Notes under the pieces: model-generated
Seen by the model: the letters and a program-made list of their open reading frames with translations, nothing else
Database searches by the model: none
What the model was told of the DNA's origin: nothing
Source: Candidatus Bathyarchaeota archaeon
GTDB taxonomy: Archaea > Thermoproteota > Bathyarchaeia > Bathyarchaeales > Bathycorpusculaceae
DNA length: 64,000 nt
Direction of reading: 5' to 3'
Assembly (NCBI GenBank): GCA_963780185.1
Contig: CAWABA010000006.1
Location: 672,001 to 736,000 of the forward strand
In this document: positions 1-25,852 of the stretch, piece after piece
Layout of the letters: each line of letters opens with the position of its first letter
How positions within the stretch are numbered: the stretch's first letter is position 1
Translations under genes and position numbers: made by a program

Positions 1-182
1 AGAAGCCGACTTGCCATGGTAAATTCACGTTTTTATGGGATGACTGCTGCGAAAATAAGGCTATTACGTTTATTTTTGCTGCGTGCAAGTGCCGATTTTT
101 ATGCTGTATTATAGAATTTTTGGCAAGCCGTTTTCGAATCACAGTCGAAGGCTGGATTTCATGAAAAAACTGGATCAACATC

Positions 183-987
183 TCATGGCTTGTGCGCTTC
201 GGCTTCTATACGCATCATTCCAACGTGAACTGTGCCTTCGGCGTCGGGAGGGTGCCTTTTGAGGTAGCGGTCAACTATTTCTTGGACGAATTTCGCTCTG
301 AAGTTCAGCGGGTAGCCTGTCGGTGAAGGGGAGCCATGTTGTGCGTACCCATCCAGCTAAGCCTTCTGCGCCGTTGTGCTTCATGTCTTTGGGGAAAAGC
401 TCGACCCGTTCAGCAACCAAGCCTGCTTCTTTCAGGAAAGCGCTGTACTCTTCGGGGTCGTAGAAGCCGTAGGGAAACGCCATGTTGTCAAAGAAGCCTT
501 TCCAAGGCTCCACATCCTCCAAGCTCGTTTATGATGTTTAGTACGTCTTTGGCGTTGCCTTTGCCAGCCATCTGAAACAGCAACCTGCCGCAGGGCTTCA
601 GGCTTCTTTGAACGCCCGCCAAGGACAGCTTTTTGGTCAACAATCCAATGCAATGCGGCATTAGAGAAAGCCACGTCAAATTCTGATTGGAAAGTCAATT
701 TCCTTGCATCCATCACTTGAAAAGACAGGTTCGGAAAATCTTTCTGCGGGAAGCTGGTTTTTGCCAGGTTTATCATTTTTTGTGAGCTGTCCACGCCGAC
801 TGCTCTGCCGTAGGGATAGGCACCGTGCGAGTTCCGCCGTGATTTTTCCGTCTCCGCAGCCGATGTCCAGCAACGCTTCGTTTCCTCGAAGTTTCAGTTT
901 CGGTATGAGTTCTTTTGCCCATTGGAACTGGTTTTGGCTGTTTTTGGCGTAGTCTTGGGCGTTCCAGTTGTATGGTTGGTTTGCCAT
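183..987 (-). CDS. Class I SAM-dependent methyltransferase (trans-aconitate methyltransferase-like), broken by several frameshifts
   Basis: Motif I LDIGCGDGKIT and FSNAALHW; consecutive ORF pieces 676-987, 432-794, 488-679 and 271-522, plus a C-terminal GTVHVGMMRIEAEAHKP* ending at 183, join into one protein. Confidence 0.85.
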
Positions 988-1000
988 GTTTTGCGCCTGC

Positions 1001-1578
1001 TTACTTGAATGCCATCTGCGAGACGGAGTAGTAGACGATTTCGCCTCTGCGGTTCATGACGGCGAGGACCATCTCTTTCTTTTGGCTTTGGCATTGCCGC
1101 AGTGCATCTGCCATCTGGTTTATGCCGAGGGGTTTGCCTTCTTGAATGCTAAGCACCAGGTAGGGTGCTGTGTCTTTTCCGTAGGCTCCGCGTTCGTAAA
1201 CTCGAAAGTCAATTCCGCCGCCGAAACCTTCCCGCGCCACGTATCCTCGGCTTCTCAGGTCGCGGTAAACGATGTAGCTGACCCAGGCGTTCTCGTTGAC
1301 GGCTTCGTAGCAGCGCAGAGGTCTTGGAAATTCATGGCTTTGCCTTTTTCGCCTTCCACTTCCAGCATGCCCTTATCCGCAAGATACAATGCCTCAAAAA
1401 AGGTGAGCGTGAAAACCTTATCCTCCGACGTGCCGTATCCCCGTTGGGTAAGCGCGTCGATGCTGCTTTGCTCAGCTACCACTATGCCTTTTTTGCGAGG
1501 ATGCCGCTGGTTCGGAATTCTGGAGACGGAGTTTTTTTGTTCTCGGTCATGAGTTAAATCAACCGTAATAGACTCCAT
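1001..1578 (-). CDS. endA: tRNA-intron (splicing) endonuclease subunit, probably the structural beta subunit; frameshifted near 1310
   Basis: LTFFEALYL N-domain; GFGGGIDFRVY...KKEMVLAVMNRRGEIVYY C-domain; catalytic Tyr and His positions not conserved. Confidence 0.85.
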
Positions 1579-1724
1579 TTTAGGGTTGTTGGCTCTTTAA
1601 CGTTATGCTGGGCAAAACCCATTTTTTCGGCTGCTATAAGAAAACTGATAAATGGGTTCTGGAATAACTAGTGTTGGGTGTCAATTTGGTTTCTGAAAGA
1701 GTAACACATTTTCTTGGATGTCAG

Positions 1725-2983
1725 ATGGCTACCTCTAATTCCGTGAAACTGCACAAACTAAGAAAGTTCATCGCATCGATGTCAACTAAAGAGGCAAGGG
1801 GATTGGAGTTCGTCTCGCTCTACATACCTCAGAGACTTCAGTGGATAACGTTGTGGCAAACCTCAAGTGCGAGCTTGAATCCGCAGCCGCAAAACCTGAC
1901 GGAGCAAGGGACGTTAGGAATCGTCTTGAAGACGCCTTCAAAAACGTAATCCAGCGTCTGAGGCTGCAGAAGGAAATTCCTGAGAACGGGCTCGCATTTT
2001 TTGCAGGAACTTACGTCGCCGGTGGGTCAGGAAACGAAGTTTTAAACGTTGAGGAACTTGCCCCGCCCGAGCCAGTTGCGACCTATCTTTACGAGGTTGA
2101 CAACCATTTCCATTTAGAGCCGCTCAGAGAAATGTTAAGAAGCCAAAAGGTTGTGGGGCTTATCGCTATGGGTTCCAAGGAGGCTAGCTTCGGCGTAGCC
2201 AATGGTGAACGCTTCGAATTTCTCGAAGATATTACGTCGGGGATTCCTGGGAAGTCGGGGAAGGGCGGGTCAAGCCAAAGACGCTACGAGAGAGAACGCG
2301 ACATGGAAGTCACATACTTTTTCCATCGAATTGCAGAGCACGCAGCAAAGGAGTTTCTTGAAAACAACAAAGTCACTGCCTTGGCAGTGGGAGGACCGGG
2401 ACAAACGAAACAGGATTTTTTGAATGGCGATTTCCTTCATTACGAGCTAAAGAACGCACTCCTAAGCGTAGTCGACACGCAATCGGTCGGCAAAGAAGGG
2501 GTGCGAGAGGTGCTTGAAAAATCTTCTGAAACAGTGAAGAATATGTGTGCGCCCGAGGAGAAGATGGTTGTTCAACGGCTTTTGGCGGAGATGAACAAAC
2601 AAAGCGGTTTAGCCACTTACGGACTGGATTCGGTGTTGACGGCGCTTAAGGCGGGTGAAGCCGAAGTTGCATTGGTGACAGATTGCACAGATGTGATGGA
2701 AATTGTTGCGGTTTGCCAGAAATGCGGAAATTCAAAAGCCAAGATTGCGCGTAAAGCAGAGAGCAGTCAAGCTATGCAGGAAATAAGGTCAAGCCCCTGC
2801 GAGAGGTGCCGCGGAATTGAATACGTGGTGGAGGAAAAAGACATGGTGGATGTTTTGGAGGATTTGGCTTCGCAGACAAACGCGACAGTTGAAGTGATAT
2901 CTACAGAATCGGAAGAAAAAGCAAAGCTCGCGGCTTTGGGAGGTTTTGCCGCCCTCTTAAGATACAAACCAAAAGTCACCTGA
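1725..2983 (+). CDS. Archaeal peptide chain release factor aRF1/eRF1 homologue with degenerate motifs; frameshift near 1835
   Basis: N-terminal RGLEFVSLYIP, ENGLAFFAG, IPGKSGKGGSSQRRYER, VGGPGQTK, CxxC...CxxC mini-domain, C-terminal LGGFAALLRY. Confidence 0.9.
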
Positions 2984-3046
2984 GCAAAACCGCCAAAACC
3001 TTTTCCGCAGGTTATCCGCAAACAACCCAGCTATGGTGACGCATGT

Positions 3047-4076
3047 TCACTTGGCTGGCTTTGTTTTCTTGAATTTGCCGTAGTCTTTGGGGTAGTAGAC
3101 TTGGGTTTCGCAGATTATCGCTGACACGTACTTTAGGGGTGTTATGTCGAAGGCGGGGTTCATGACTTTAACGCCGTCAGGGGCAATTTGTACCGAGCCG
3201 ACATGGGTAACTTCTTCGGGTTTGCGTTCCTCAATAACCACGTCCGCCGCCTTGTGCAGGTAGGTCGAAAGTAGATTTCGGCGCCGCCACATAAAATGGA
3301 ATCCCGTGTTCATGCGCCAGCACCGCCACGCTGTAAGTGCCAATTTTGTTGACAACGGCGTCTTGGACGATTCGGTCTGAGCCCACGATGACTTTGTCGA
3401 CGAGACCTTTGCTCATGACGTAGCCCGCCATGTTGTCCGTTATCAAAGTCACAGGTATCCCGTCCCGCATAAGCTCGTAAGCTGTGAGCCTTGCGCCTTG
3501 AAGCAGCGGGCGGGTTTCGTCAGCGATTACGCGGATTTTTTTGCCTTCTTCCCAAGCCGCGCGGATGACCCCCAATGCGGTGCCGTATTCCACGGTCGCC
3601 AACTCGCCCGCGTTGCAATGAGTCAAAATCGTGTCGCCGTCCGCTATGAGCACGGAGCCGTTTTTGCCGATGGCACGGTTCTGCGCCGCGTCTTCGTCGG
3701 CAATTTTCTGCGCCTCCAAAATAACCGCTTGCTTGACGGCTTCAACGTTGCCAGTTTCGCTTCGCGCTTTGCTAAGAACGCGGTCTACGCCCCAGAACAG
3801 GTTTACGGCGGTGGGACGCTGCCGCTTGATGATTGCGCCTGCATCTTCAAGCTCAACGAGCAGTTTTTCTCGGCTTTGCGCCTTTGAATGGTAAGCTGCC
3901 AAGGCGACGCCGAAGCCTGCCGCTGCACCCAGCAGTGGGGCGCCTCTGACTCGCAGTGTTTTTATGGCTTCAGCCATCTGCTCGACGGTTTTGATTTCCA
4001 AAATGACTTCTTGTAGGGGAAGTTTGGTTTGGTCGGGTGTGATTACTGTCCCGTTTTGCCACTTTATCATCCGCAT
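3047..4076 (-). CDS. mtnA: S-methyl-5-thioribose-1-phosphate isomerase (eIF2B-like family); frameshift near 3260
   Basis: DQTKLP, VRGAPLLG, RPTAVNL, LTHCNAGELATVEYGTA, ETRPLLQGARLTA, NKIGTY, NPAFDITP. Confidence 0.9.
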
Positions 4077-4141
4077 GTTTCTTGACTCCAAATGAATAGT
4101 ATTTGCCTAGTTGTTCGGATAATGTTAAAGATTTTCTGTAG

Positions 4142-4531
4142 CTAATTCTGGGTCCGTTGAACCAAGTCGTAGAGGTTGCCGTAAAGGTCTTCGAAAACCA
4201 CGTCGACACCGTACATTTGCTGAGTTGGGACGCCGTAGAATTTGACACCTTTCGCCTTCAATGCTTCGTAGTCTCGTCGACAATCGTCCGTCTGCAAAGT
4301 CAAAAAAACATGGTCGCCAGCCTGCTTCCCCAACGCTTTCCGCTTCACTTCAGTGTTGGCTAAAACAAAAGTTAACTCAAGGTCAGACTGGTCTTTGGGC
4401 GAAACAGTAACCCAACGCATGCCGCCCCCGAAATTATCGTCCCGTCTTTTTTGGAACCCCAACTTTTCAATATAGAAAGCTATTGCTTCATCAAAATCCT
4501 TCACTAACAAGGTAACGTGACCTATTTTCAT
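4142..4531 (-). CDS. VOC/glyoxalase family protein
   Basis: HVTLLVKDFDEAIAFY...FEDLYGNLYDL. Confidence 0.9.
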   Translation of the reverse strand: MKIGHVTLLVKDFDEAIAFYIEKLGFQKRRDDNFGGGMRWVTVSPKDQSDLELTFVLANTEVKRKALGKQAGDHVFLTLQTDDCRRDYEALKAKGVKFYGVPTQQMYGVDVVFEDLYGNLYDLVQRTQN

Positions 4532-4602
4532 GCCATCCGCTCCTGAAATCTTCGAAGATGGAAAGAAAATGTTTGCCTAAGCATATAAGCTTAAGCGGGG
4601 GT

Positions 4603-5355
4603 TTATGCGGAGTTGTCGAATGGGGATTTTAGGTTTGTGACGACTTCGACGGGTGATTCTTCGCCTGACTTTAGCCGTTTTTTCCATTCTTCCCCGACTG
4701 CGATTAGCGAGAAGATGCCTGAAACTTCAGCTTTGGACTTCTTCACAAGGGTAACGAGCGCTTCTTGGGTTTCGCCGCTTTTAATCATGTCGTCTACGAT
4801 GAGCACGCTGTCGCGTTTTTTGATGGCTTCTTTTGGGATGTAGAGGGTGACGGTTACGCCTGAATCCCGCCCTAAAATGTAGGTTTCGTCTAGGAAGGCT
4901 TTAACGCCGACTTCCTTGTTGCGTTTGGCAACGATAAGGTTTACGCCAAGCGCGTTGGCAACCATGGTGGCTAACGGGATGCCGTCTACTGCGGCGGTTA
5001 AGACTTTGGTGACACGTTTTCCCGCGAAGTTTGCGAGGGCGTGGTTGGCGGCTTGCTGCAGGATGTTGTAGTCGCCGACGATTTCTGTGTTGTCAAAGTA
5101 GCCTGCGTCGTCGAATTTTATTCTGCTGCGTAATTCAGCTTCTAAGCCGACCATTTTGTTTAGGACTCGCCATAGCTGTTTGGCTCTTGCGGTGTTTGGC
5201 AGTACGTGTCCTTTTGCATAGCGACTTAGAACAGTGACGGGCAGGTCGGTTTTTGAGGCTAATTCACGGTAGGTGATGTTTCGTTTGTATTTTGCTGTTC
5301 GAAGCAGTTCAATGGTCATTAATCGTAGTTTCAAATCTTCTGCGTGAGTGCTCAA
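4603..5355 (-). CDS. HTH + phosphoribosyltransferase-domain protein (PurR-like regulator)
   Basis: N-terminal HTH (ITYRELASKTDLPVTVLSRYAKGHVLP); PRPP motif VLIVDDMIKSGET. Confidence 0.85.
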   Translation of the reverse strand: MSTHAEDLKLRLMTIELLRTAKYKRNITYRELASKTDLPVTVLSRYAKGHVLPNTARAKQLWRVLNKMVGLEAELRSRIKFDDAGYFDNTEIVGDYNILQQAANHALANFAGKRVTKVLTAAVDGIPLATMVANALGVNLIVAKRNKEVGVKAFLDETYILGRDSGVTVTLYIPKEAIKKRDSVLIVDDMIKSGETQEALVTLVKKSKAEVSGIFSLIAVGEEWKKRLKSGEESPVEVVTNLKSPFDNSA

Positions 5356-5543
5356 ACCTTATCCCCTATTTTGTACATTTATAAGTTAATTAATCGACGT
5401 TTAGTTACTATCGCAGCGATACAATTTATGGGTTTCTGTCTATAAGAGGCACTGCATGAATCCACATGCCTAAAAAAGTGCAGAAAGACACAAGACAGCA
5501 TACTTAGGCGCCTTTACATTAAACTTTTTAGACACCGCGCCAA

Positions 5544-6113
5544 GTGCTATACCAAAGGGGAAGATTCACGCAGAGGCTCAACCGACTATTCATAACCGCG
5601 CTTTTCGGCTCAATAATCTTCGTCGTCAACGCTTTTCTGCCGCCCCCCATAAACTATGTGCTAATAGTAGTCCAAGCAGTCATCCTCGCCCTAAGCGCGT
5701 TGTTCGTCAAAAGATTGGGCGCAACCTACGTCGGAGCAGTCGGCGGACTCCTGTCGGCGCTTTGGAATCCAGCGTTGGGTCCTTTCACCTTTGTTTTCGC
5801 AACTCTTTTCGGCGTTTTCGTCGACGGGTTCATATTCATCTTCAGAATCCAGGCTTCAAGCGAAGGCGTGAACCGTAACAGGCTGATAGCCGCAATGGCG
5901 TTTGCCACGATGCTTATCGGGTTAGCAAGCTATTCGGCGTTTGCTGTTTTTCCACAGTTCGTTCCTTTTGCCAAGGGACTCTTCGGTTTATTCATCGAAA
6001 GAAGCGCGATGCTTGATTTTCTTGTCCTGTTTATGGGTCCAGCTACAGGTATCGTTGCGGGTTACGCCGCCGCTTACCTGTGGAACAAGTACCTGAGGCA
6101 CATCCACGTCTAA
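5544..6113 (+). CDS. Integral membrane protein, ECF S-component-like
   Basis: About 190 aa, 5-6 hydrophobic segments, GATYVGAVGGLLS pattern. Confidence 0.55.
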   Translation: MLYQRGRFTQRLNRLFITALFGSIIFVVNAFLPPPINYVLIVVQAVILALSALFVKRLGATYVGAVGGLLSALWNPALGPFTFVFATLFGVFVDGFIFIFRIQASSEGVNRNRLIAAMAFATMLIGLASYSAFAVFPQFVPFAKGLFGLFIERSAMLDFLVLFMGPATGIVAGYAAAYLWNKYLRHIHV

Positions 6114-6379
6114 ACGCCTAGCTGTTTTATTTTTTCGTCAACCAACTGAGCAATCATCAAATTGGAGACAAAAACGCATTTCACACCAAGCAACTGCGCC
6201 AGCTCAGCAGGCTTCTGGTCCTCCGTTACCAGGAGCAAATTGTGTTTCCCAGCATACTCTACGATTTCACGGTCTTTAGCGGCCTTCAAGCCTGCCTCGT
6301 GGGCAGTCAGCACCTCGTAGCCTAAACTCTCAAAATATTCTTTGAGACCTGTGTACATCTCATCCAGCAATAACTTCAT
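6110..6379 (-). CDS. DUF5615/Mut7-C PIN-like protein
   Basis: MKLLLDEM...DREIVEYA...LLVTED. Confidence 0.8.
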   Translation of the reverse strand: MKLLLDEMYTGLKEYFESLGYEVLTAHEAGLKAAKDREIVEYAGKHNLLLVTEDQKPAELAQLLGVKCVFVSNLMIAQLVDEKIKQLGV

Positions 6380-6520
6380 GCGCTAACCCATTTCAGTTTC
6401 CGCGCCAAATTATTTAGCCTTTCCTAACCACTAGCATCGCATGTGCTAGGCGGACACGCAATAATTTTAAGCAACATGCTTCTAGCAATTCAGTCAGCGA
6501 TTGCGTTTGATGTGATGCAA

Positions 6521-7885
6521 ATGACCAAGCTGTTTGGAAGTTCAGGTGTTAGGGGTCTGGTGAACGTTGATTTGACGCCCCAGTTAGCGTGCAAGGTCGG
6601 CTTAGCCGTAGCCACGTACTCCAAAGCCAAAAAAACCGTGGTCGCCTGTGACACGCGGGTTTCCGGCGGCATGCTGCAGGATGCGTTGGTTTCAGGTTTG
6701 CTTTCAAGCGGTTCAGACGTCTATTTAGCCGACATCGTTCCAACGCCCGCTTTAGCCTACGTTACCCGAGCGTTGGGGGCAAACGCGGGATTCATGCTTA
6801 CAGCTTCACATAATCCGCCTCAGTACAATGGGATAAAAGTGTTCAAACCTGACAGCCTATCGTACACTGACATGGATCAAGACGCCGTCGAAAAAAAAGT
6901 ATCAGACGGCACCTACGCCCGGGCTGATTGGCAGAAACTTGGCAAAACCATCCCCGTCAACGCAAGCCAAATCTACCTGGAAATGGCTTCCAAAGCCGTC
7001 AAGCTCAAGCGACATTGGCGCGTCATCGTTGACCCTGGATGCGGCGCCACCTTCAACGTTGCCCCCACATTACTCAAAGCCTTAGGCTGCAAAATCACCG
7101 CGCTTAATGCTCAAGCCGACGGATATTTCCCAGCCAGAAAATCCGAACCCACCGCCGAATCGCTCAAAGATTTAGCCAGCATCGTCAAGGCGCTTGGGGC
7201 GGATGTCGGAGTGGCTTTCGACGGAGACGGTGACCGAGTGGCATTTGTCGATGAGAAGGGCGAGTTCGCGAATTTTGATCGTTCGTTAGCTGGGTACGCC
7301 GCTTACGCGCTCAAGCAGGGTGGCGGCGGAACGGTTGTAACCAATGTTGAGGCTTCTATGTGTGTTGAAACGATGGCGCAGAAGCAGGGCGGCAAAGTCA
7401 TCCGCACCAAAGTTGGAGACATCTACGTTTCCGAAGCCATAAAGCAGTCAGGCGCGGTTTTCGGCGGCGAACCCTGCGGCGCATGGGTACACCCCAAACT
7501 TCACTTTTGCCCCGACGGACCCCTCTCGGCAGCACTTATGCTAAAAGCTCTGGAGGACACGGGTCAAACCTTGAGCCAATTCATAGATGCCGTGCCCGAG
7601 TACATAACCCAGCGAAAAAACATTTCAGTCAAGAACGAACAAAAATACAAGACGATTGCAAAACTGGAGTCAGCCCTGAAGGCGACGTTTCCTGATTACA
7701 CGGATTTCTCGACGGTAGACGGCGTTCGGCTGGCGCTTAAGCATGGGTGGCTTCTGGTTCGGGCTTCTGGAACGGAGCCGCTTATCCGCTTAACTGTTGA
7801 AGGAGAATCCACGGCAGTGGCAAACGATATAACCCAAAAGGCTACTGCATTAATACGTAAGCAAGTTGAGGCTGAAGTGACATGA
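6521..7885 (+). CDS. glmM: Phosphoglucosamine mutase
   Basis: LFGSSGVRG, TASHNPPQYNG, FDGDGDR, RASGTEP; overlaps a glmU-like gene. Confidence 0.9.
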   Translation: MTKLFGSSGVRGLVNVDLTPQLACKVGLAVATYSKAKKTVVACDTRVSGGMLQDALVSGLLSSGSDVYLADIVPTPALAYVTRALGANAGFMLTASHNPPQYNGIKVFKPDSLSYTDMDQDAVEKKVSDGTYARADWQKLGKTIPVNASQIYLEMASKAVKLKRHWRVIVDPGCGATFNVAPTLLKALGCKITALNAQADGYFPARKSEPTAESLKDLASIVKALGADVGVAFDGDGDRVAFVDEKGEFANFDRSLAGYAAYALKQGGGGTVVTNVEASMCVETMAQKQGGKVIRTKVGDIYVSEAIKQSGAVFGGEPCGAWVHPKLHFCPDGPLSAALMLKALEDTGQTLSQFIDAVPEYITQRKNISVKNEQKYKTIAKLESALKATFPDYTDFSTVDGVRLALKHGWLLVRASGTEPLIRLTVEGESTAVANDITQKATALIRKQVEAEVT

Positions 7886-9168
7886 AAGCTGTATTGTTAG
7901 CGGCTGGCGAAGGCGTAAGGCTCCAGCCCATAACTGCCACGCGCCCCAAACACCTCATCAAAGTAGGCGGCAAACCGATCCTACAATTCTGCCTAGAAGC
8001 GGTCAAGAACGCGGGAATAAGCGAGGCAGTCATAGTTACGCATTATATGGGAGATGCCATACGCCAATATTTTGGAAACGGCGAAAAACTCGGCTTAAAC
8101 ATTAGCTATGTTGAGCAAAAAGCGGTTCTCGGCACGGGAAACGCTGCGGCGGTTGCCGAGCCTAACGTGGATGGAGACTTTGTTCTGGTTTACGGGGATT
8201 TGCTTTTCGGCATAGATGCGGTGAAGGATACTCTGCGTCTGTTTGAACATGGCAAAACGGCGGCGGTAGTCGGCGTCGTCCCAGTTGATAACCCTGAAAG
8301 CTACGGAATAATTGCGTTGGATGAGAAGAAAAGGGTCAAAGGCATAGTTGAGAAGCCAGCTGCTGGAAAAGCACCGTCAAACCTAGCTAACGCAGGAGTC
8401 TACGTGTTTTCACCTGAAGTTTTTGACAAGATACGCCAAACCGAAGCCTCGGTCCGTGGCGAATGGGAATTAACGGACGCTTTTACGCTTCTTGCAAAGG
8501 AGGGCAAAACTGTTTTGGCTGCGGAGCTTTCGAAGGACGACTGGTTTGACGTGGGCAGACCATGGGATTTGCTGGACGCAAACAATTGGGCGCTCAAACG
8601 CATGGACCACAAAGTTTTAGGCACTGTTGAGCAGGGAGCCCACCTCATCGGGCAAGTCACGGTTGCAGAGTCTGCGCGCATACGTTCAGGCGCCTACATT
8701 GAAGGACCATGTTTCATTGATGACGAATGCGATGTCGGACCAAACTGCTACATCCGCCCAGGCACCAGCCTCGGCAGAAAAGTCCGCGTTGGAAACGCCT
8801 GCGAAATCAAAAACAGCATCATCATGGCTGGCACGCATGTCGGGCACCTATCCTACATCGGAGACAGCATCCTCGGCGAACACTGCAACCTTGGCGCGGG
8901 AACCGTAACGGCTAACTACCGCATGGACGCAGGCTCCATAAAAATGATGGTGAAAGACCAGATGGTCAACACGGGAAGAAGAAAACTCGGCGCAGTCTTC
9001 GGCGACAACGTAAAAACGGGGATTAAATCGCTGTTTATGCCAGGCGTAAAGGTCGGTGCGAACAGCTGGGTGGGACCAGGCTTCATGGTGGAACAAGACT
9101 TACCTGCCGACACAATCGCTTACCAAAAGCAAAACTGCAGCATACAAGAAAAGAAAAATAAGCAATAG
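7882..9168 (+). CDS. glmU: Bifunctional sugar-1-phosphate nucleotidyltransferase/acetyltransferase
   Basis: LAAGEGVRLQPIT..PKHL; C-terminal hexapeptide repeats; TGRRKLGA. Confidence 0.9.
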   Translation: MKAVLLAAGEGVRLQPITATRPKHLIKVGGKPILQFCLEAVKNAGISEAVIVTHYMGDAIRQYFGNGEKLGLNISYVEQKAVLGTGNAAAVAEPNVDGDFVLVYGDLLFGIDAVKDTLRLFEHGKTAAVVGVVPVDNPESYGIIALDEKKRVKGIVEKPAAGKAPSNLANAGVYVFSPEVFDKIRQTEASVRGEWELTDAFTLLAKEGKTVLAAELSKDDWFDVGRPWDLLDANNWALKRMDHKVLGTVEQGAHLIGQVTVAESARIRSGAYIEGPCFIDDECDVGPNCYIRPGTSLGRKVRVGNACEIKNSIIMAGTHVGHLSYIGDSILGEHCNLGAGTVTANYRMDAGSIKMMVKDQMVNTGRRKLGAVFGDNVKTGIKSLFMPGVKVGANSWVGPGFMVEQDLPADTIAYQKQNCSIQEKKNKQ

Positions 9169-10024
9169 GCAGAGTTCAAAAAGCTTGGAAACCCCGTTTT
9201 ATGAATTCTGAGTTCATAAAGCTTTAGAAGTAAATCCTCGTTTTTGGAATTGGGTCCAGAGGGAAATGCATTTGATGGTTCGCCATCACCTTTTGCATCT
9301 TCCGGAAAACTCTGGAACCCACTCCCGATAATCCAACGGTTAAGATTTTTACAAGTGTTGTTTTCTGCAGATTTCCTTTTTGTCGGCTTAGACATAGGCA
9401 AGACTGAATAAGGGTGCGAGACACTTGAGTGGTGATGGAAGGTCAGGAGGGCAATCAAAATAAAGAATAAAGCGAAAAATAAACCGAAAAGCGAAGTAAA
9501 AGGTCAAACAAAAAACAAAGGAAAAAAGACTTGGAAGCAACAATAAAGCTTCCTTGGGCAAGCAAAGTAAGCTTGGCCCATTTTTGGCGACACGTGAAAA
9601 CAGGGATAGCCCTGATGATTCAAAAATATGAAGACAATGTCTTCAGGCTTTTGCAATTTTGCTTTTGATTTGAAATTGAGCCTCTTTGCGCCCTTAACTA
9701 GAAGGCCGCTTGCGAGGATGTTGTCTTTCACTCTAAGAAACTATCTACTCTTTTAAAGTCATTTTAAATTGAATTGTAAACCTGTTTATCATCAATTATC
9801 CAATAACGATGACTCAGCTAATTCCCAGTCGAACCAGTACGATTAATTCTTTGTAATGGCATTAGCCATCCGCACCGATAAGGAAACAGAAAAATAAGCG
9901 AAAGCTCTAACGGAGTCAAAATCAACAAGACTAAAAAGCAAAACGACCTCTAAAATAATAAGCGACAGAGGAATAACTCGTTTCCGCAACAAGAACATCA
10001 TCATTCCAAGAAAATCAACTTCAT

Positions 10025-13021
10025 TTGCTTGTAGAAGACCTAAAGAAATGCAATCTTGAGCACTCTAATTTGAAGAGTAAGAAACAACTCCGCAGCATCT
10101 TAAAGTTCATTGGCATTGGCTTCTTGTTATACAGGGACATTGATAATCAACTCGTTGAGAACCAAACAAAGAAACTCTCACTGCTGAAAAATGCTTACCC
10201 GATCTCGAATGCGTACTCGGTTTACCTCAAAGTACAGCTCAACACAATCGAAAAAGCCAGTCGCTTTCTCTCAAGCTCAGAAGAGAACAACTGGTCTGCA
10301 TCCATAGAGTCAAGTAAAGCAGATATAAACTATCTTCTTTCTTTCCCAAACCAACAACAACTGTATGATACTGAGATTATAAGTCAATTAGACAACGGAA
10401 AACAGTTCTTACTGAACTTCAACTCAAACTTAGAGAAAGCTCAACTTAGAAACAGATTGCGTGAGTTGAAAAGCGACATCATAAAGGCAAAACAAGAATA
10501 CGATGAACTGTACCAAAGACCCTTTTACTTCTCAAAAAGTGAATCCCAAAAATGGCATAGCAACAATTCCTCTCTTAGAGACCCGATTAAAAACGCACTG
10601 AACAAAGGAATTGTCGGATTAGACTTTCAAGACTCTCTCCATCAACTCAGAGATGTTTTTGAAAATGGTGAAAGGCTAGTCACAGAACGAAACCAGCACT
10701 TCATTGAAAGCGAAATACGAAAGGAAGAACTCTTCCCACCAGTTGAAGGTCAAACCTTAACGGAAGAGCAAAGAAGAGCCATAGTCGTTGATGAAGCTAA
10801 CACTCTTGTTGTTGCTGGTGCTGGAACAGGAAAAACAACCGCACTTTTAGGAAAGGCTCAATACTTAATGGCAAAGGGGTTAGCTCCACCTCAAGAAGTA
10901 TTGATTGTATCCTTTTCAAAAGCTGTTGCTGAGGAAAATAATACCAAAATTAATCATAACAGAAAAAGGAAGTTTGAGGTAAGAGACTACCACAGTTTAG
11001 GATTAAAACTCATCAGAGAATCAGCAGATGACGTTCCGAGCGTTTCCAAAGTAGCTGAAGATAAAATAGCTAACTCAAGAACCCTTCTTGAACTAATAGA
11101 AGCAAGGATAGGTGAAAATAGCTTTACACAACTCATCACCAACTACTTCCTCTTCAACTTCCAAGAATACAAAACCGTTTTTGATTTCGAACAGGAAGGC
11201 GACTACTTTTACTACTTAAAGAACAATGAAATTAGAACTCTGCAAGGGCACCGAGTAAGAAGTCTTGAAGAGTGTGAAATCGCCAACTTCCTCTACATCA
11301 ACGGAGTGAAGTATGAATATGAAAAACCCTTCAAAACTCCAAATCAAAGCAACGAAAGGATGCCTTACAGACCCGACTTCACCCTAACAGAATATGACAT
11401 ATGCATCGAACACTTTGGCATCGATAAAAATAACAAGACTGCACCGTGGGTCAACCAAGAGCAATACCTAGCAGACATGAAATGGAAGATAGAACAACAC
11501 GACTCAAACAAACTAATCAAAACATACAGTTATGATAAACAGGAAGGTCAGTTAATAGAAAGACTCAAAAAAGAACTAATCACACATGGAGTTGTCTTCA
11601 ACAGAATCCCCAACGAAGACATATTCAAAGAACTAAACAAATGGAAAAGAGTCAACTCCTTTGCGTCTTTTCTCTCCAAGTTCCTCAACCTCTACAAATC
11701 AACAGGAAAAGACGTTGAAGTCCTAAAGCAACAAAGCAACTCTAAGAGAACAAGCGCATTCTTAGAAATATTCTCAATCATCTACCAAGACTATGATGAA
11801 CAGCTACGCAAGTATAACACCATTGACTTTAACGACATGATAAACAAAGCAACCAATTCAGTTCAGCAGAATAAAACCTATTCAAGATTCAAGTATATAC
11901 TCGTTGATGAATTCCAAGACACAACCCAAAGCCAATATCGATTACTCAAGGCACTTCTCGAACAGAATAATGCGCGACTCTTCTGTGTAGGTGACGATTG
12001 GCAATCCATAAACCGTTTTGCTGGTGGAGACCTCTCAGTAATGACCGAGTTCGAAGAGAACTTTGGAAGCTCCGAAAGAAACTTTATTCAAGAAACCCAC
12101 CGTTTCTGTGACAAACTATGCATCTTCTCATCGAAGTTCATTCTTGCTAATCCTAACCAAATTCCAAAAGAAATAACAAGTAAACAGAAGGAGACAGGAC
12201 CAGCAGTCACAATCGTCTCTGACTGGACTGAGATGGCACTCGAAAAGATACTAAACGAAATATCTCAAAACCCAAACAAGAAAACCACTGTCCTAATAAT
12301 GAATCGCTACAGAGACATCGGAAAACCCTCTAACTTGGAAACTCTTGCTAAGAACTATCCAAACCTCTCAATCAATTACTCAACGGTTCACAAAGCAAAA
12401 GGACTCACAGTTGATTATGGAATAGTCATAGGTTTGAGAGGTGGACTAATGGGTTTCCCATGCCAAATAGAAGATGACCCATTGCTAAACTTGGTTCATG
12501 CTTGTGATGAGTATTATCCACACGCAGAAGAGAGAAGACTCTTCTACGTAGCATTAACCAGAGCAAGAAAACACGTCTACTTAGTAGTTGACGACCCAAG
12601 CAATGTCTCACAATTCGTTAAGGAGATTCAAGATAATGGGTATGAAGTCAATGATAATCTGCATAGAACTAAGCCGATTAGGTGTCCAAAATGTAAAACA
12701 GGGTTAACGCTTTGGCGATTGAAGTCTACAATCCGACCAGATGATGTCTACAAAGGATGGGGAGAATGTAGTAATGCTTCTTACTGTGATTACAGACCGA
12801 GGACGTGTCCCGAATGCAGGAACGGTTTCTTGTACAAGGATGGCTTAAATTTCACTTGTTCTAACGAACAATGCACTTACACGGAAAAAGCATGTCCTGA
12901 CTGTGAAGACGGTCATCTTGTAGAGCGAACCAGAAGAAGAGACGGAGCGGTGTTTCTCGGATGCTCAAATTTTGGGATAAATGGTTGTCCACACACCGAA
13001 GAACTCCCTGATAAGGCTTAA
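10025..13021 (+). CDS. UvrD/HelD (helicase IV)-like SF1 helicase with internal PD-(D/E)XK-like segment and C-terminal Zn ribbons
   Basis: LTEEQRRA, AGAGTGKT, VDEFQD, VGDDWQSI, TVHKAKG, EERRLFYVALTRA; YRPDF..ICIEHFG; repeated CxxC. Confidence 0.9.
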   Translation: MLVEDLKKCNLEHSNLKSKKQLRSILKFIGIGFLLYRDIDNQLVENQTKKLSLLKNAYPISNAYSVYLKVQLNTIEKASRFLSSSEENNWSASIESSKADINYLLSFPNQQQLYDTEIISQLDNGKQFLLNFNSNLEKAQLRNRLRELKSDIIKAKQEYDELYQRPFYFSKSESQKWHSNNSSLRDPIKNALNKGIVGLDFQDSLHQLRDVFENGERLVTERNQHFIESEIRKEELFPPVEGQTLTEEQRRAIVVDEANTLVVAGAGTGKTTALLGKAQYLMAKGLAPPQEVLIVSFSKAVAEENNTKINHNRKRKFEVRDYHSLGLKLIRESADDVPSVSKVAEDKIANSRTLLELIEARIGENSFTQLITNYFLFNFQEYKTVFDFEQEGDYFYYLKNNEIRTLQGHRVRSLEECEIANFLYINGVKYEYEKPFKTPNQSNERMPYRPDFTLTEYDICIEHFGIDKNNKTAPWVNQEQYLADMKWKIEQHDSNKLIKTYSYDKQEGQLIERLKKELITHGVVFNRIPNEDIFKELNKWKRVNSFASFLSKFLNLYKSTGKDVEVLKQQSNSKRTSAFLEIFSIIYQDYDEQLRKYNTIDFNDMINKATNSVQQNKTYSRFKYILVDEFQDTTQSQYRLLKALLEQNNARLFCVGDDWQSINRFAGGDLSVMTEFEENFGSSERNFIQETHRFCDKLCIFSSKFILANPNQIPKEITSKQKETGPAVTIVSDWTEMALEKILNEISQNPNKKTTVLIMNRYRDIGKPSNLETLAKNYPNLSINYSTVHKAKGLTVDYGIVIGLRGGLMGFPCQIEDDPLLNLVHACDEYYPHAEERRLFYVALTRARKHVYLVVDDPSNVSQFVKEIQDNGYEVNDNLHRTKPIRCPKCKTGLTLWRLKSTIRPDDVYKGWGECSNASYCDYRPRTCPECRNGFLYKDGLNFTCSNEQCTYTEKACPDCEDGHLVERTRRRDGAVFLGCSNFGINGCPHTEELPDKA

Positions 13022-13215
13022 ACAACTCTCGCATACTTACCAGAGACATTTAAGCTCCGAGAGTGAATGGTTAAAGCCAAAATCGAGATAACGCCGAAGG
13101 ATGAAAAAACTGTCTATGACAGCTTGGTCAGAATTCAAGAGTTAGGCATACTGCACAAAAAAACCGCCCATATTCGACAATACGCGACAATAACTTTAAC
13201 ATAGCGTCAACATAC

Positions 13216-13346
13216 AAAGTCGCAATCCGCCCATAGCAAAGTCGCAACTCGCAAGCAGGCTCCAGCCCCAAAGCAAAAAAGCAACCCAAAACATCAAAAG
13301 CCAACGCGGGAAGTCGCAACTTTCACCAAACCAAAAGTCGCAACTT
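13216..13346. repeat. Four direct copies of AAGTCGCAA(C/T), arranged as two pairs
   Basis: Copies start at 13217, 13239, 13311 and 13335. Confidence 0.75.
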
Positions 13347-13483
13347 ATTTATTTTCACAAAAAAACCAAAAAACCAGCGCTTCCACGAAACGAAATCAAG
13401 CATGCAACCGTTTTCTAGCGTTTAAGGCGTATTAAAGATAAATACTGGTAATGCAATCTCGTATCCGTAAGGAGAAAATAAAT

Positions 13484-13906
13484 TTGTCTGTAGCGCAAAG
13501 AAAGTATTTCACTGAAGTCTCATTACTCGCAGATAAAACAGTTTCTGTAGCAACTAATAACGGAAAAATATTCATCGGCACACTCCTCGGCATCAACCCA
13601 GACAACATGAGTCTCGTTCTAGCTGACGCAAGGGACGAAGCTGGAAAAACACTTCACCGGCTTTTCCTGAACGGAAGCGGGGTTTCTCAAATTTCAAGCG
13701 CAGAAAAACCCTTCGACCTCAAAGCCTTAGCCACAAGACTTGAAAAAGTCTTTCCGACTATGGTTAAACTGTACGAGGACAAGGGCTTCATCTGGGTCAT
13801 GGACAAAGTGAAACTGACGGAAAAAGGCGTCATTGAAGGTTCAGGTCCAGCAGCCGACCGAGTACAAAAGGTTTACGACCAGTTCATGAGCGAAGTTAAA
13901 CCCTAA
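13484..13906 (+). CDS. Lsm/Sm-like protein with C-terminal domain (SmAP3 type)
   Basis: Sm1 motif GTLLGINPDNMSLVLADA plus C-terminal VMDKVKLTEKGVIEGSGPAADRV; GGAG upstream of TTG. Confidence 0.85.
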   Translation: MSVAQRKYFTEVSLLADKTVSVATNNGKIFIGTLLGINPDNMSLVLADARDEAGKTLHRLFLNGSGVSQISSAEKPFDLKALATRLEKVFPTMVKLYEDKGFIWVMDKVKLTEKGVIEGSGPAADRVQKVYDQFMSEVKP

Positions 13907-14652
13907 ATAAACCAGCGCAACTGCTCTTCTTCTTTCTTCTTTTCTTCTGTAATGCTTCTAATGATGCCGAATGATTCTAGGACCTTTTTGATTTCATCGC
14001 CGGTCTCCTCCAGACGAGACATATCCACATTTAGATTAAGGTACTTTCCCAAAGTAATCAACGCGTAGCGAGCAGCGTTCACATCGGGATTCATGCCAGG
14101 CGTGTCAACAAGCAAAGAGAAACCTTTCAAATCCCTAACTCTCGCTAAACCAATGGATAACCCCGCGATACCGAAAACATGCCCAACCATCACCTTCGTT
14201 CCTAAATCAAGCGCCACCTGCATCGTATCCAAGTCTGTGGCTGTGCTGTAGATTCCAGGCACAGGTTGAGCCTCGTCTTTTTTGAAGCCGCCGATCGAAA
14301 TTACAAAGCGACATCCGAACTCCTGAGCTAAATCAAGAACCTTGCCGACAAGCTCATACTGCCCCACAGTCGTCAGCGCCTGAGTGTTACCGTACCAGAT
14401 AATCAAGTCGCGACCGCCCTCCAGTTTGGCGTAGTAGAGTTCGTTTCCAGGCGAAAGTGCTTTACCGTCTCCAGTGGTTACCGCGAAATCCTGAAAGGAC
14501 GACGAAAAAATCTGAACGAACCGGGTAGCTTTTAGCTCTTTTATCAAGTGGAGTGCTGCGATGTTTGCTACGAATCCTATACCAGGCAATCCTTCGATGA
14601 GGATTGGGTCGTTTAGTTTCGGTTTTTCGCTGATGTCGATGGAGCAGACCAT
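13903..14652 (-). CDS. PAC2-family proteasome assembly chaperone
   Basis: ILIEGLPGIGFVANIAA, SIGGF, PDVNAA. Confidence 0.9.
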   Translation of the reverse strand: MVCSIDISEKPKLNDPILIEGLPGIGFVANIAALHLIKELKATRFVQIFSSSFQDFAVTTGDGKALSPGNELYYAKLEGGRDLIIWYGNTQALTTVGQYELVGKVLDLAQEFGCRFVISIGGFKKDEAQPVPGIYSTATDLDTMQVALDLGTKVMVGHVFGIAGLSIGLARVRDLKGFSLLVDTPGMNPDVNAARYALITLGKYLNLNVDMSRLEETGDEIKKVLESFGIIRSITEEKKKEEEQLRWFI

Positions 14653-14983
14653 GGTTAACATCTCTTTTGTCAAGTATAGACAAACTTTGCGATATAAGGA
14701 TGCTGACATTTCGGATAAAGACGTTCGAAACTGCAACCCCGTTGCCCTTCAGGTTTTTTGAAAAGAAGGAAAAACCTCTTCATCATCAACATCATCAACA
14801 ACAATGGCAGGGCTGCTTAGAAGAGGAAACACCAAATAGCAAACAAGAAGCATCAGGGCAATAGCTTTTCCACAGTGCGGAGCTTGTGCAAAATAAATCA
14901 GCATGGTTTTCTTTAAGTTGCAACATGCTCCAGAGGTAAGAAAGGCATATAAGAGCTAGGGGTGAAACGGTAATAGACCAGCT

Positions 14984-16252
14984 ATGCATATGCAAAAAAC
15001 ATCTGTCGCCCGCATTGTTCTTCTAACGCTGATGCTGCTTGCCGCTGTTTCTCCCGTTTTCATCGCTAAATCAGATGCGCAAACCAACCAGAATTACTGG
15101 GTAACGGTGAAGCCGACAGGTGGCTCTCAAATGTACACTACGGTTGATAGAAATTGGACCTTATCGTTTGAGGCGCGGTGGAGCTACGGTAACAGTTCTG
15201 GTCAACTCATCAGCAACGCGGTGGTCACAATGAAGGTTTCTGGAGCGTCGGAGGGATCGTTAGGTACGCTTCAGCTGAACACGACTTCTGGAAACTTTGT
15301 CTTCAACTATTCTTCATCCGTCGCCGACAAAATAACTTTTACACCCACCCAATTAAAAACACAGGATGGAACAAAATATGCTTCCGCCCTTGTGACAGAT
15401 AGTGGGGCAGAGGCTTACGGTTTGCAATCGGCAGCGGTTACAGTTTGGTGGGATACCTTCCATGTGTCTGCAACAAAAGCGAACACAAGCAGCTCGAAGA
15501 CAGTCGACGTGTCAGTGAACGTAACCTATCTGCTGCTCCCTCAAGAAGGCTTAACCCTGCCCGCACAAGACACCTATTCAAACCAGACAGTCCTGCCCAA
15601 GATAGCAAGTGGCGCTGACGTAACCATTAATGGGATTAAAGCCCAAGAAACTGGATCAACAGGCGTCTACTCAGCACAGACCTCCACAATATTCCCCTCA
15701 GCCTACCTGCTGGTAGCAGTTTCACAAAACGGGTGGACAACAACCCAAACAGCGTTCAGCTTCACCCAGAAAGCAAACCAAGCAATCTGGAACTACGCAA
15801 TAATAATCATCGTTATCCTTGCCGCTGCATCGTTAACGCTGTACTTTTTTATGCATAAAAAGCCCAATCAACCTTCTTCATCGCCAAACCGACCAATGCT
15901 TCCCTTAATCGGCGGCGTTTTGCTGCTGGCGACTTCTGTTGTCAGCCTTTACTGGGGCGCCCTTGCAATTGAAGCCTCATCACATGGGTTTAGCTGGCTT
16001 ATTTTGGCAGTAACGGGTGTAAGCTCCTTCGCCGTGGGTGTTTTAGGCGGCGTTATGGCTTTGAGGCGGAAGAATCAGGCATTAGCTATCTTTGCCGCAT
16101 GCATCCCGTTGACAGTTAACGTCAGCATGGTGACTTATGCGCTTGGCGCTTACTCCTTAGCGGTTCCGTGGGTATTCATTTTCGCGTCAACTCTCGCTTC
16201 CATAATAAGCGGGGTGTTGATTGCACGCTTTGATGACCAATTCCCAAAATGA
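14984..16252 (+). CDS. Hypothetical exported protein with C-terminal TM helices
   Basis: Signal-peptide-like N-terminus, S/T-rich ectodomain, about 5 C-terminal TM segments. Confidence 0.75.
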   Translation: MHMQKTSVARIVLLTLMLLAAVSPVFIAKSDAQTNQNYWVTVKPTGGSQMYTTVDRNWTLSFEARWSYGNSSGQLISNAVVTMKVSGASEGSLGTLQLNTTSGNFVFNYSSSVADKITFTPTQLKTQDGTKYASALVTDSGAEAYGLQSAAVTVWWDTFHVSATKANTSSSKTVDVSVNVTYLLLPQEGLTLPAQDTYSNQTVLPKIASGADVTINGIKAQETGSTGVYSAQTSTIFPSAYLLVAVSQNGWTTTQTAFSFTQKANQAIWNYAIIIIVILAAASLTLYFFMHKKPNQPSSSPNRPMLPLIGGVLLLATSVVSLYWGALAIEASSHGFSWLILAVTGVSSFAVGVLGGVMALRRKNQALAIFAACIPLTVNVSMVTYALGAYSLAVPWVFIFASTLASIISGVLIARFDDQFPK

Positions 16253-16378
16253 CCAATGGCATTTGCGCTCAATAATAGTTAGATGAATCAAAAGCATTTT
16301 TCAATCAAACCAGCCACGTAGGTTTGCGGGCTAGTTGTTTTTTATAGGCGAGCCGTGATTCTTGTTTAGGCTTCAACC

Positions 16379-18004
16379 TTGAGTTTCGAAATAAAACAGA
16401 AAGACCTGCTGGGTAGAATAGGTAGACTGAAAACTAAAAGCGCAACAGTGGAAACCCCACTTCTGTACCCCGTAATTAACCCCAGCATCCAACTTGTGAC
16501 GCCCAAGAAACTTAAGGAAACATTCGGGTTTGAAGCTGTCATAACAAACTCCTATATAATCAGAAAACGCTTCGGCGACAAAGTCATCGACGAAGGCTTA
16601 CACAAGTTTCTGGGTTACGACGGCGCCATCATGACTGATTCCGGAGCGTACCAAATTCTTGTCTACGGCGAAGTTGAGGTGAGCCAGAAGGAAATTGTGG
16701 CTTATCAGGAAGGCATAGGCAGCGACATCGCCACCATGCTTGACATACCGACAGGCTGGAAAATAACAAAAGAGCAAGCGCAGGTTACTGTGGATGAAAC
16801 GCTGCGGAGGGCAAAAGACTTCTTCAAAATCAAGACCCGCGACGACATCTTGTGGGTTGGTCCAGTGCAGGGTGGAAGGCATCTGGATTTGGTGGCTAAC
16901 TCAGCGGTTGAAATGGGAAAACTTCCCTTTCAAATCCACGCGTTGGGAAGCCCCACGGAAGTGATGGAAAGCTACCGTTACGACGTCTTGGCAGACATGA
17001 TTTTAACCGCTAAAAAAGGCTTACCTGTTGACCGCCCGCTTCATCTGTTCGGCGCAGGGCACCCAGCCATGTTCTCTTTGGCTGTGGCTCTAGGATGCGA
17101 CCTTTTCGACTCAGCCGCCTACGCCCTGTACGCCCGCGAAGACCGCTACATGACTGACACCGGCACATGGCGGCTTGCAGAGCTAGATTACTTCCCATGC
17201 TGCTGTCCCCGATGCTCAACCGAAACTCCAAAGAGCTTACTGAAAAAGCCGAAGGAGGAGCGGGAAGTTTTCTTAGCTGAACATAACCTTTACGTTTGTA
17301 TGGCGGAGCTCAAAAGCATCAAACAAGCCATCAGGGACGGCAGACTGTGGGAGCATACAGAGATGCGGGTCCACGGTCACCCAGCGCTGCTTTCAGCCCT
17401 CAAAAAACTCCGCAGCCACGCTGACTTCCTTGAAACGTTCAGCCCCACAGTTAAAAGCAGCGGATTCTTCTATTTCGACTCCGTCGGACTGGCACGTCCC
17501 GAAATCACCCATTACCGCAAACGCATAGCCGAACGCTACGACCCGCCTAAAAAAGCCAAAGTTCTCTTCCTCGTACCCCAAACAAGAAACAAGCCTTTCC
17601 ACAAAGCGCCCGAGTTCAAGAAGATTAGGCAGCTTTTCCGAATTTTAGGCGAGGAGTTGGCGCGGCAAGTTCACGTTTGCGTTTACGCTGCCCCATTCGG
17701 GGTTATCCCGTTGGAGCTTGACGAGGTTTACCCGCTGAGCCAGCATGAGACTGCGTTGCCGCTTGACTTGGAAACCGGGAATTACGTGGCTGACCAAACG
17801 GCTGAATACATTAAACGTTCATCTTATGCAGGTGTGGTTTTGCTTAATGACCCTAAACTCTGGCAGGACAAGGTTAAATCGGCAACGGCAGCAGCTTGCG
17901 ACGTGAAAGGGTTGCTGTTTGACTCGGTTGACGCGGATGCAGGGAAGACCCAAGAGGTCATAGTTCGCCTAGAAAACATTTTGCGGAAGCAGTTAAGCGA
18001 ATAG
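16379..18004 (+). CDS. tgtA: Archaeosine tRNA-guanine(15) transglycosylase
   Basis: MTDSGAYQ, PVQGG, HLFGAGHP, DLFDSAAY, CCCPRC Zn site, HNL. Confidence 0.95.
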   Translation: MSFEIKQKDLLGRIGRLKTKSATVETPLLYPVINPSIQLVTPKKLKETFGFEAVITNSYIIRKRFGDKVIDEGLHKFLGYDGAIMTDSGAYQILVYGEVEVSQKEIVAYQEGIGSDIATMLDIPTGWKITKEQAQVTVDETLRRAKDFFKIKTRDDILWVGPVQGGRHLDLVANSAVEMGKLPFQIHALGSPTEVMESYRYDVLADMILTAKKGLPVDRPLHLFGAGHPAMFSLAVALGCDLFDSAAYALYAREDRYMTDTGTWRLAELDYFPCCCPRCSTETPKSLLKKPKEEREVFLAEHNLYVCMAELKSIKQAIRDGRLWEHTEMRVHGHPALLSALKKLRSHADFLETFSPTVKSSGFFYFDSVGLARPEITHYRKRIAERYDPPKKAKVLFLVPQTRNKPFHKAPEFKKIRQLFRILGEELARQVHVCVYAAPFGVIPLELDEVYPLSQHETALPLDLETGNYVADQTAEYIKRSSYAGVVLLNDPKLWQDKVKSATAAACDVKGLLFDSVDADAGKTQEVIVRLENILRKQLSE

Positions 18005-18058
18005 CCTAAGTACAGAAATAAGGCGTTTTATGATCCAGCCCATTATTTTGAAGGTATC

Positions 18059-18466: not shown

Positions 18467-18614
18467 AATTGTTCTTTTAATTATTCCTACGAGTGAGTCG
18501 GTAAACTATATAGATTTCCATTTCTCGCTGTACCATCATGAACCAATCTTTTTTCAGCTAGCGCAACCTAATTGACTTTAGACTCTAGTCTTAAAGCATT
18601 AATGGTGAGGAAAC

Positions 18615-19214: not shown

Positions 19215-19295
19215 ATATGTTTTTAAAAGAGCAGAGTTTAATTTCTAAATGTTAAGGGGAAACTCAAAGACAAAGCTACAAAGGATTGGTTTTAT

Positions 19296-25843: not shown

Positions 25844-25852
25844 GCAGATCGA

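Follow-up and report, generated by a model that had tools for sequence, protein, structure and literature searches.

The aRF1-like gene and its motifs

The DNA analyzed here, referred to as the window, is a 64,000-nucleotide stretch from a Candidatus Bathyarchaeota archaeon (GenBank assembly GCA_963780185.1, contig CAWABA010000006.1, positions 672,001 to 736,000, forward strand). Near its beginning, on the forward strand, lies a gene related to the archaeal class I release factor aRF1, which had been singled out in an initial annotation made from the sequence alone. Pfam searches with the 380-residue frame 1841–2983 identified eRF1_2 (9.7e-32; about 2153–2539) and eRF1_3 (2.8e-16; about 2555–2968), and eRF1_1 (about 1922–2137) scored 22.7 bits, slightly below the cut-off of 23.8 bits. 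Among the hallmarks of class I release factors, the three-domain aRF1-like fold is present, and GGQ, NIKS, and YxCxxxF, which a passage in PMC2613156 calls universal in a/eRF1, are absent. The motifs quoted in the initial annotation were all recovered from the sequence. AAAKPDG (1883–1903) occupies the tip of the helical hairpin, the place of NIKS in aRF1; YEVDNHF (2090–2110) stands at the place of YxCxxxF with Val instead of Cys; and the catalytic-loop segment SGIPGKSGKGGSSQRRYERERD (2237–2302) contains GGS at 2264–2272, with the Ser encoded by TCA at 2270–2272. The codons GGC GGG TCA AGC CAA at 2264–2278 translate to ...GKSGKGGSSQRRYER, and the segment reads KGGSSQRRYER. As had been pointed out, the step from Gln (CAA or CAG) to Ser (TCA) is not a single substitution, since two base changes are needed. 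The C domain includes a Zn-ribbon mini-domain (2714–2809) with two CxxC pairs, CQKC (2714–2725) and CERC (2798–2809), an insert also carried by the canonical aRF1 copy, as well as the C-terminal motif GGFAALLRY (2939–2965). The latter corresponds to GGIAAxLRF/Y of aRF1 and Pelota, a type of motif that PMC2613156, in one passage, links to binding of the partner GTPase.

The gene had been described as one open reading frame (ORF) at 1725–2983 beginning with ATG, a description that had to be revised on both counts. In the assembly the gene is divided between two frames, with one base missing near 1832. The 5′ part (1686–1832, frame of 1725) encodes the N-terminal tail VSERVTHFLGCQ, helix 1, and a stretch ending in EFVSLYIPQ; counted from ATG 1725 this frame gives 36 residues up to that point, and its stop follows at 1947–1949. 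The remainder (1832–2983, frame of 1841) continues with ETSVDNVV, encodes the rest of the N domain and the M and C domains, and ends with TGA at 2981–2983; this frame itself has stops upstream. When the ORF of the closest orthologue (88% amino acid identity, from the genome designated G120) was used in tblastn searches, its residues 1–56 matched window 1668–1835 in the frame of 1725. The open frame extends 5′ of ATG 1725 through a conserved (N)LVSEKVTHFxGCQ stretch, and 10 of 18 aligned relatives have Ile, Val, Leu, or Glu at the position of this ATG, which is probably not the start. The most likely start codon is TTG 1686, with GTG 1671 and TTG 1674 as alternatives. At the position of TTG 1686 the codon is TTG in 19 of 23 loci including the window and ATG in G009, and in one G005 copy the equivalent codon directly follows a stop.

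Two short elements were observed upstream. ATAAAT (1648–1653, forward strand) resembles a TATA box and may serve as promoter; it precedes a conserved His codon in 18 of the 23 loci including the window, at a distance of 59–63 nt in 17 of them and 44 nt in one. GGGTG (1676–1680, forward strand) represents a conserved (A)GGTG element located 6–7 nt before the TTG, and GGTG stands 30–31 nt ahead of the His codon in 15 of the 23 loci. It could act in the manner of a Shine-Dalgarno sequence, or some relatives could use its GTG as an in-frame start codon: in G001, G010, G023, G002, and G014 this GTG is in frame and immediately follows a stop, and in the window it is out of frame. Synonymous conservation is raised over the first 20 codons (1686–1745 and the same place in the loci of 22 relatives), with identical-codon fractions of 0.77 and 0.66 compared to 0.52 overall. 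The HFxxCQ motif in the N-terminal tail was observed to be specific to the paralogue.

A family of aRF1 paralogues in Bathyarchaeia

When 5.8 billion proteins were searched, 883 matched at E ≤1e-10. The best 120 of these are 69–100% identical to the query and mostly 413–436 residues long, the 100% match being the window's own protein; the organism-labeled entries among them belong to Bathyarchaeia and carry the source name 'aRF-1'. At least 139 proteins share the motif changes described above, and because the changes are common to a family of this size, we consider those in the window, as judged from sequence, to be neither chance nor error. The genome was also searched for a canonical aRF1, as the initial annotation had proposed, and one was found alongside the paralogue: a 425-residue protein on contig C1 with TASNIKS, YRCDSRF, and GGQSARRYER, scoring 509 bits with TIGR03676. 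A canonical aRF1 was likewise present in all 18 paralogue-bearing genomes checked. The same genome encodes Pelota (contig C6, 361 residues, 247.5 bits with TIGR00111) and a single aEF1A-type gene, which led us to reject a dedicated GTPase partner for the paralogue. A link to pyrrolysine was also rejected, as this 93%-complete genome has no match to PylD and its best score with the C-terminal PylS model, 34 bits, falls short of the cut-off of 178.

Within the genus, 76 of 120 genomes carry the paralogue (44 of the 73 high-quality ones), and nine genomes contain it twice. Clear breaks affect at least four of the copies (G101, G129, G472, and G009b, which is the second G009 copy). Of 401 genomes sampled across the class, 31 carry the paralogue: 29 of the 104 from family f1, with G000 counted, and 2 of the 18 from family f7. 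None was found in the other 279. The family is accordingly accessory and patchy in its distribution. In-frame stops had been considered as recoding or as an intermediate between Gln and Ser passing through a stop; tblastn placed none inside the genes of G005a, G076, G087, G113, and G447, where the reported stops lie at or beyond the gene end, and none of the real lesions (G472, G129, G101, and G009b) falls at the GGQ codon. With respect to viral carriage, a scan with the single protein gave no match, and a profile scan gave 14 loci that are only 24–44% identical and so fall outside the family.

To describe the motifs, 135 paralogues were aligned with 20 canonical copies from the genus and 29 distant canonical aRF1s, and motifs were counted over 139 proteins. 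NIKS is found at the homologous place in none of the 139, and the hairpin tip varies in both sequence and length. No paralogue has the Cys of YxCxxxF; the motif could be placed in 133 of the 139, with Val in 131, Leu in one, and Ile in one. The Thr of the GTS loop is not retained either. With NIKS and this Cys missing throughout and a tip of variable length, the loss of stop-codon reading proposed earlier is a fair inference. The M domain is the best conserved, SGipGKsgKGG.SQRRYEReRd being at least 95% conserved at most positions, and the residues G, G, S(+1), and R(+4) show no variation among 89–90 aligned paralogues and canonical aRF1s. The C domain retains the four Zn-ribbon Cys (at least 90% conserved) and L.G..A.LRY. 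We conclude that the paralogue is an accessory aRF1 descendant that has kept the whole tRNA-mimicking body and lost every stop-codon-reading element.

Selection was estimated as the median pairwise ratio of nonsynonymous to synonymous divergence (dN/dS), using a Nei-Gojobori script and pairs with dS <1.5. The initial annotation had asked whether the clade is under purifying selection, and the median of 0.169 for the paralogue family (N domain 0.27, M domain 0.13, C domain 0.15; 74 pairs) answers this in the affirmative. For canonical aRF1 the median was 0.053 (0.04, 0.04, and 0.06 for the N, M, and C domains; 33 pairs). The window copy compared with G120 gave dN 0.061, dS 0.671, and a ratio of 0.091. 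From these ratios we conclude that the paralogue encodes a functional protein that is not decaying and evolves about three times faster than the canonical factor, with the N domain least constrained.

The residue following the two Gly is Ser in 76 of the 139 paralogues, Gln in 57, Glu in five, and Trp in one. GGS is hence neither a defining trait of the family nor, with GG and its flanks invariant, the sign of lost catalysis for which it had been taken, and of the expectation that close orthologues would lack both GGQ and NIKS, only the part concerning NIKS stands. In the copies of 30 relatives, Ser is encoded by TCA (10), TCG (3), TCT, TCC, and AGT (one each), Gln by CAG (9) and CAA (4), and Glu by GAG (1). 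A tree with all Ser rows in one clade was rejected (log-likelihood 153 lower, p-value of the approximately unbiased test [p-AU] 0.0019), the group having been named after the tree was seen. Parsimony gave 12 changes on the 139-row tree, which has many weak branches, 3 on a tree of 17 genomes, and 2 on the canonical-gene tree for the same 17. We read this pattern as several exchanges between Gln and Ser, each by two base changes, and judge from the sequences that Ser is held by selection as an alternative state rather than damage. The proposal that the state follows the host better than the gene tree was dropped, the difference between 2 and 3 changes on 17 genomes being too small. In the two-copy genomes both copies agree in all nine cases (eight with Ser in both, one with Gln in both), with copies 57–100% identical and three pairs at least 91%; this hints that the host background may set the state, in a small sample of related genomes.

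Other residues than Gln after GG were also observed in archaeal aRF1-family proteins of unrelated lineages, namely P0137, P0172, and P0237 (GGW), P0187 (GGA), P0188 (GGF), and P0162 (GGE). Most of these keep NIKS; P0162, which is labeled as a bacterial record, does not. Textbooks may overstate how universal the Gln is. A separate group of aRF1 homologues (P0123, P0125–P0127, P0130, and many others) reaches 500–1450 residues, two to three times the usual size, with the match divided into two or three stretches by breaks close to the GGQ loop, which would fit inteins at this place.

In phylogenetic analyses the paralogue forms a clade of its own with 100% support and a long stem (0.75). The clade groups with the canonical-looking aRF1s P0124, P0134, and P0140 (95–100 in the Shimodaira-Hasegawa-like approximate likelihood ratio test, SH-aLRT) and not with the genus' own aRF1. 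P0124 has NIKS, YRCDDHF, and KGGQSARRY, and is 42–43% identical to the paralogue and 45% to the resident aRF1, and the paralogue is 37% identical to the genus' own aRF1. Joining the paralogue with the resident canonical protein was rejected (log-likelihood 43.8 lower, p-AU 0.0019; LG+G4, 31-row subset). On the evidence of these trees, the paralogue probably descends from a foreign, laterally exchanged aRF1 lineage. In some species pairs the paralogue has a much lower dS than canonical aRF1 (0.54 vs. 1.48 for G019–G009 and 0.67 vs. 1.93 for G019–G002) and in other pairs it is not, a hint that the paralogue may also have been exchanged within the genus. The placement in a separate clade beside the canonical aRF1 and Pelota of the same genome bears out the initial description of a paralogue other than the cell's terminator.

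A putative stop-codon-independent A-site factor

A structure was predicted with AlphaFold2 for the G120 orthologue (predicted local distance difference test [pLDDT] 81.4, predicted template modeling score [pTM] 0.62) and compared with the PDB using Foldseek. The best match is aRF1 4af1 (E 1.8e-38, template modeling [TM] scores 0.70/0.73), followed by eRF1s, and for its N domain the match is 2llx, the corresponding domain of eRF1 (TMt 0.83). The Balon chain 8v9j was recovered at rank 20 (E 8.6e-20) and Pelota chains at rank 26 or lower. The N-terminal tail of 20 residues is predicted to be disordered (pLDDT <50). With TIGR03676 the window frame scores 327 bits and the G120 orthologue 377 bits, both above the cut-off of 234.7. 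Compared to canonical aRF1 (TIGR03676; 4AF1, 3AGK/3VMF), the paralogue shares the three domains, the eRF1-type N fold, the GG turn with its SxRRYER flank, the Zn-ribbon insert, and the C-terminal GGxAAxLRY. It differs in the loss of NIKS and of the GTS-loop Thr, in the replacement of the YxC Cys by Val, in Ser for Gln in the window, and in 13–18 extra N-terminal residues with HFxxCQ.

Pelota/Dom34 is a codon-independent A-site factor, delivered in archaea by aEF1A; its N domain is of the Sm-like type, and it lacks a GGQ loop. It belongs to the same superfamily as the paralogue and shares its C-domain motif. The earlier statement that the protein is not Pelota is confirmed by its eRF1-type N domain and by a TIGR00111 score of 74.5 bits against a cut-off of 177.65. 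Membership of the VLRF1/acVLRF1 family is not indicated, with 30.2 bits for NF041024 against a cut-off of 125, and a match to Pfam PF18859 (35.7 bits) sits under the far stronger eRF1_2 match.

Taken together, we propose that the paralogue is a stop-codon-independent A-site factor working at the peptidyl-transferase center, probably in rescue or release, and put the probability of this reading at roughly 45%. Like aRF1 and Pelota, the paralogue would reach the ribosomal A site with the cell's only aEF1A as its carrier. Given the loss of its motifs, it would bind without decoding a stop codon, and the GG(S/Q) loop, with its invariant GG and flanks, could then enter the peptidyl-transferase center. 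There it would most likely promote peptidyl-tRNA hydrolysis on ribosomes out of reach of the canonical aRF1. The result would be a codon-independent release or rescue factor with a logic comparable to that of bacterial ArfB/ICT1, that is, the use of a release-factor catalytic loop without stop-codon reading. ArfB/ICT1 are bacterial and mitochondrial codon-independent peptidyl-tRNA hydrolases with an unrelated fold of the bacterial RF type and a strict GGQ, and their C-terminal tail detects the empty mRNA channel. A prediction of the complex between the paralogue and the aEF1A of the genome scored 0.00 in a run without controls, which speaks neither for nor against such a complex. According to a passage in PMC6514570, release-factor paralogues have repeatedly been recruited to rescue and to biological conflicts, and the fast evolution, patchiness, duplication, and transfer of the present family would agree with such recruitment, as a fit and not as a functional test.

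The exchange of Gln is compatible with retained catalysis. As stated in parts of PMC4691834 and PMC5799190, the backbone conformation of the Gly residues is indispensable, water is coordinated through the main-chain amide at the Gln, and the Gln side chain packs and selects water; Pro at this position abolishes activity, and a Gln-to-Glu mutant retains reasonable release activity. Because catalysis is carried by the backbone and the main-chain amide, and the Gln-to-Glu mutant is active, Ser or Glu after GG does not alone mean that hydrolysis has been lost.

Several observations weigh against the proposed rescue or release function. To our knowledge, all release-type factors including the codon-independent ArfB/ICT1 keep the Gln strictly, so that, judging by its repeated loss, selection may be acting on something other than water-specific hydrolysis, and one paralogue even has Trp at this place. 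No feature for recognizing stalled ribosomes was identified in the paralogue, its N-terminal tail being the part predicted as disordered. The paralogue is missing from 29 of the 73 high-quality genomes of the genus and is thus dispensable. Nor does its neighborhood hint at a pathway, as no conserved operon partner was found: among 16 loci, 5 have the MtnA-like gene and 4 have EndA next to the paralogue.

A good deal less probable, in our view, is that the paralogue occupies the A site and the peptidyl-transferase center without catalysis or peptide release, as a hibernation, protection, or regulatory factor or as a competitor for aEF1A. The model here would be Balon, which as described in part of PMC10901736 is an aeRF1 homologue that can act with EF-Tu as an mRNA-independent hibernation factor, having an aeRF1-like body without NIKS and binding irrespective of mRNA. 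Such a role would agree with the loss of NIKS, with a Gln replaceable by Ser, Glu, or Trp, with the Balon-type chain found in the fold search, and with the accessory, patchy distribution. The likeness is one of analogy; Balon/Rv2629 is bacterial, about 10% identical to aeRF1, devoid of the GG loop, and equipped with an HP motif and a lasso loop. The Balon/Rv2629 model NF052289 gave 32.8 bits against a cut-off of 320. Both Balon and Pelota have lost the GGQ loop, whereas in the paralogue GG and about 20 flanking residues are the best conserved part, dN/dS is lowest in the M domain, and the 57 proteins with GGQ retain the loop in full. These points speak against a non-catalytic occupant.

Integrity of the window copy and significance of the family

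DNA alignment with G120 and tblastn placed the frame break at 1830–1834 (forward strand), where the window (CCT CA- GAG) is one base shorter than the orthologues (CCA CAT GAA in G120). The aRF1-like gene is one of four consecutive genes in window 1–4100 that are all frame-broken when compared with G120 or the Pfam profiles. The others are a methyltransferase gene (271–987, broken, with pieces 676–987 and 432–794), the gene for the tRNA-intron endonuclease EndA (1001–1578, three pieces and two shifts), and an IF-2B/MtnA-like gene (3047–4091, three pieces and two shifts). Over the following 4100–21500 (~17 kb), where the window genes were compared with G120, no break was seen in the window copy. 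The cluster of one-base frame breaks possibly reaches about 2 kb further upstream in the contig. Short-read contigs from two runs, 99% alike, are without one base at 3258, the exact break site of the MtnA-like frame. ORF lengths in the genome as a whole are normal, with 353 ORFs of at least 300 residues per Mb compared to 375 and 362 in samples of two relatives; these statistics rule out a genome-wide poor assembly and indicate that the errors are local. With four neighboring breaks and the contradiction by short reads at 3258, the patch looks like a local assembly fault, and the break near 1832 is probably an error of this kind. A programmed frameshift at 1832 was rejected, as the copies of all 22 relatives aligned across the site read in one frame.

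Three DNA sequencing runs of one study hold small shares of the genome, and no RNA sequencing runs containing it were listed. Two further observations concern the comparison with G120. A sugar-nucleotidyltransferase gene at about 25510–26800 of its contig C30 (corresponding to window 7876–9165) is split in two frames and is intact in the window (7882–9168), so the G120 assembly contains frame errors too. The 250-residue protein encoded at window 4603–5355 (reverse strand) is 100% identical to its G120 orthologue, compared to 83–97% for neighboring genes; its sequence reads as a helix-turn-helix-like N-terminus and a phosphoribosyltransferase-like C-terminus.

That the frameshift is genuine and the window copy a real pseudogene is improbable. 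It would account for the broken frame, clearly broken copies exist elsewhere in a genus where the paralogue is dispensable, and site 1832 lies outside the same-strain short-read contigs, which leaves room for a recent event and counts against an intact gene. The lesion is nevertheless a single missing base in a lineage with a low dN/dS relative to G120, it sits in a patch where EndA, the MtnA-like gene, and the methyltransferase gene are broken as well and which is followed by 17 kb without a break, and one of the neighboring shifts is contradicted by the short-read contigs.

Least probable, and in our opinion very much so, is that the paralogue is a terminator that reads stop codons in a new way or serves fewer codons or contexts, comparable as a second release factor to the Methanosarcina copies: it does pass the cut-off of the NCBI aRF-1 model, its N domain is under purifying selection, the Tyr and Phe of YxCxxxF are kept, and a passage of PMC12626013 puts the share of archaeal genomes with two aRF1 copies at 4.3%, there assigning them no function, yet the codon-contacting hairpin tip is variable, the Cys and the GTS-loop Thr are gone, the genome has no pyrrolysine system, and a highly conserved canonical aRF1 is always present. 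Methanosarcina aRF1-2, compared here by its description in part of the same paper, is likewise an extra aRF1-family gene beside the main one, with no mention there of lost motifs, whereas the paralogue is confined to two families of Bathyarchaeia and is without a pyrrolysine link. Our literature search found no description of the paralogue family in the texts it covered; supplementary tables such as Table S9 of PMC12626013, on two-copy genomes, lay outside its scope and may include the family.

Archaea split stalled ribosomes with Pelota and ABCE1, and we know of no archaeal factor that releases the peptide without a stop codon. The paralogue family appears to have the anatomy expected of such a stop-codon-independent release factor. 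In its strongest form, which we regard as unlikely, the proposal would make it the first release-type, ArfB-like rescue factor of Archaea, a codon-independent, aEF1A-delivered peptidyl-tRNA hydrolase derived from a laterally acquired aRF1, with selection, apparently in step with the host background, switching between Gln and Ser. If this were true, the switch might tune the choice of nucleophile or allow escape from control of, or attack on, the (methylated) Gln. The pipeline label 'peptide chain release factor aRF-1' over-annotates these proteins and may mislead surveys of the genetic code and of gene copy numbers. The family also amounts to a natural experiment on GGQ, in which the glycines never change and the Gln appears to have been repeatedly exchanged for a Ser that was then kept by selection.

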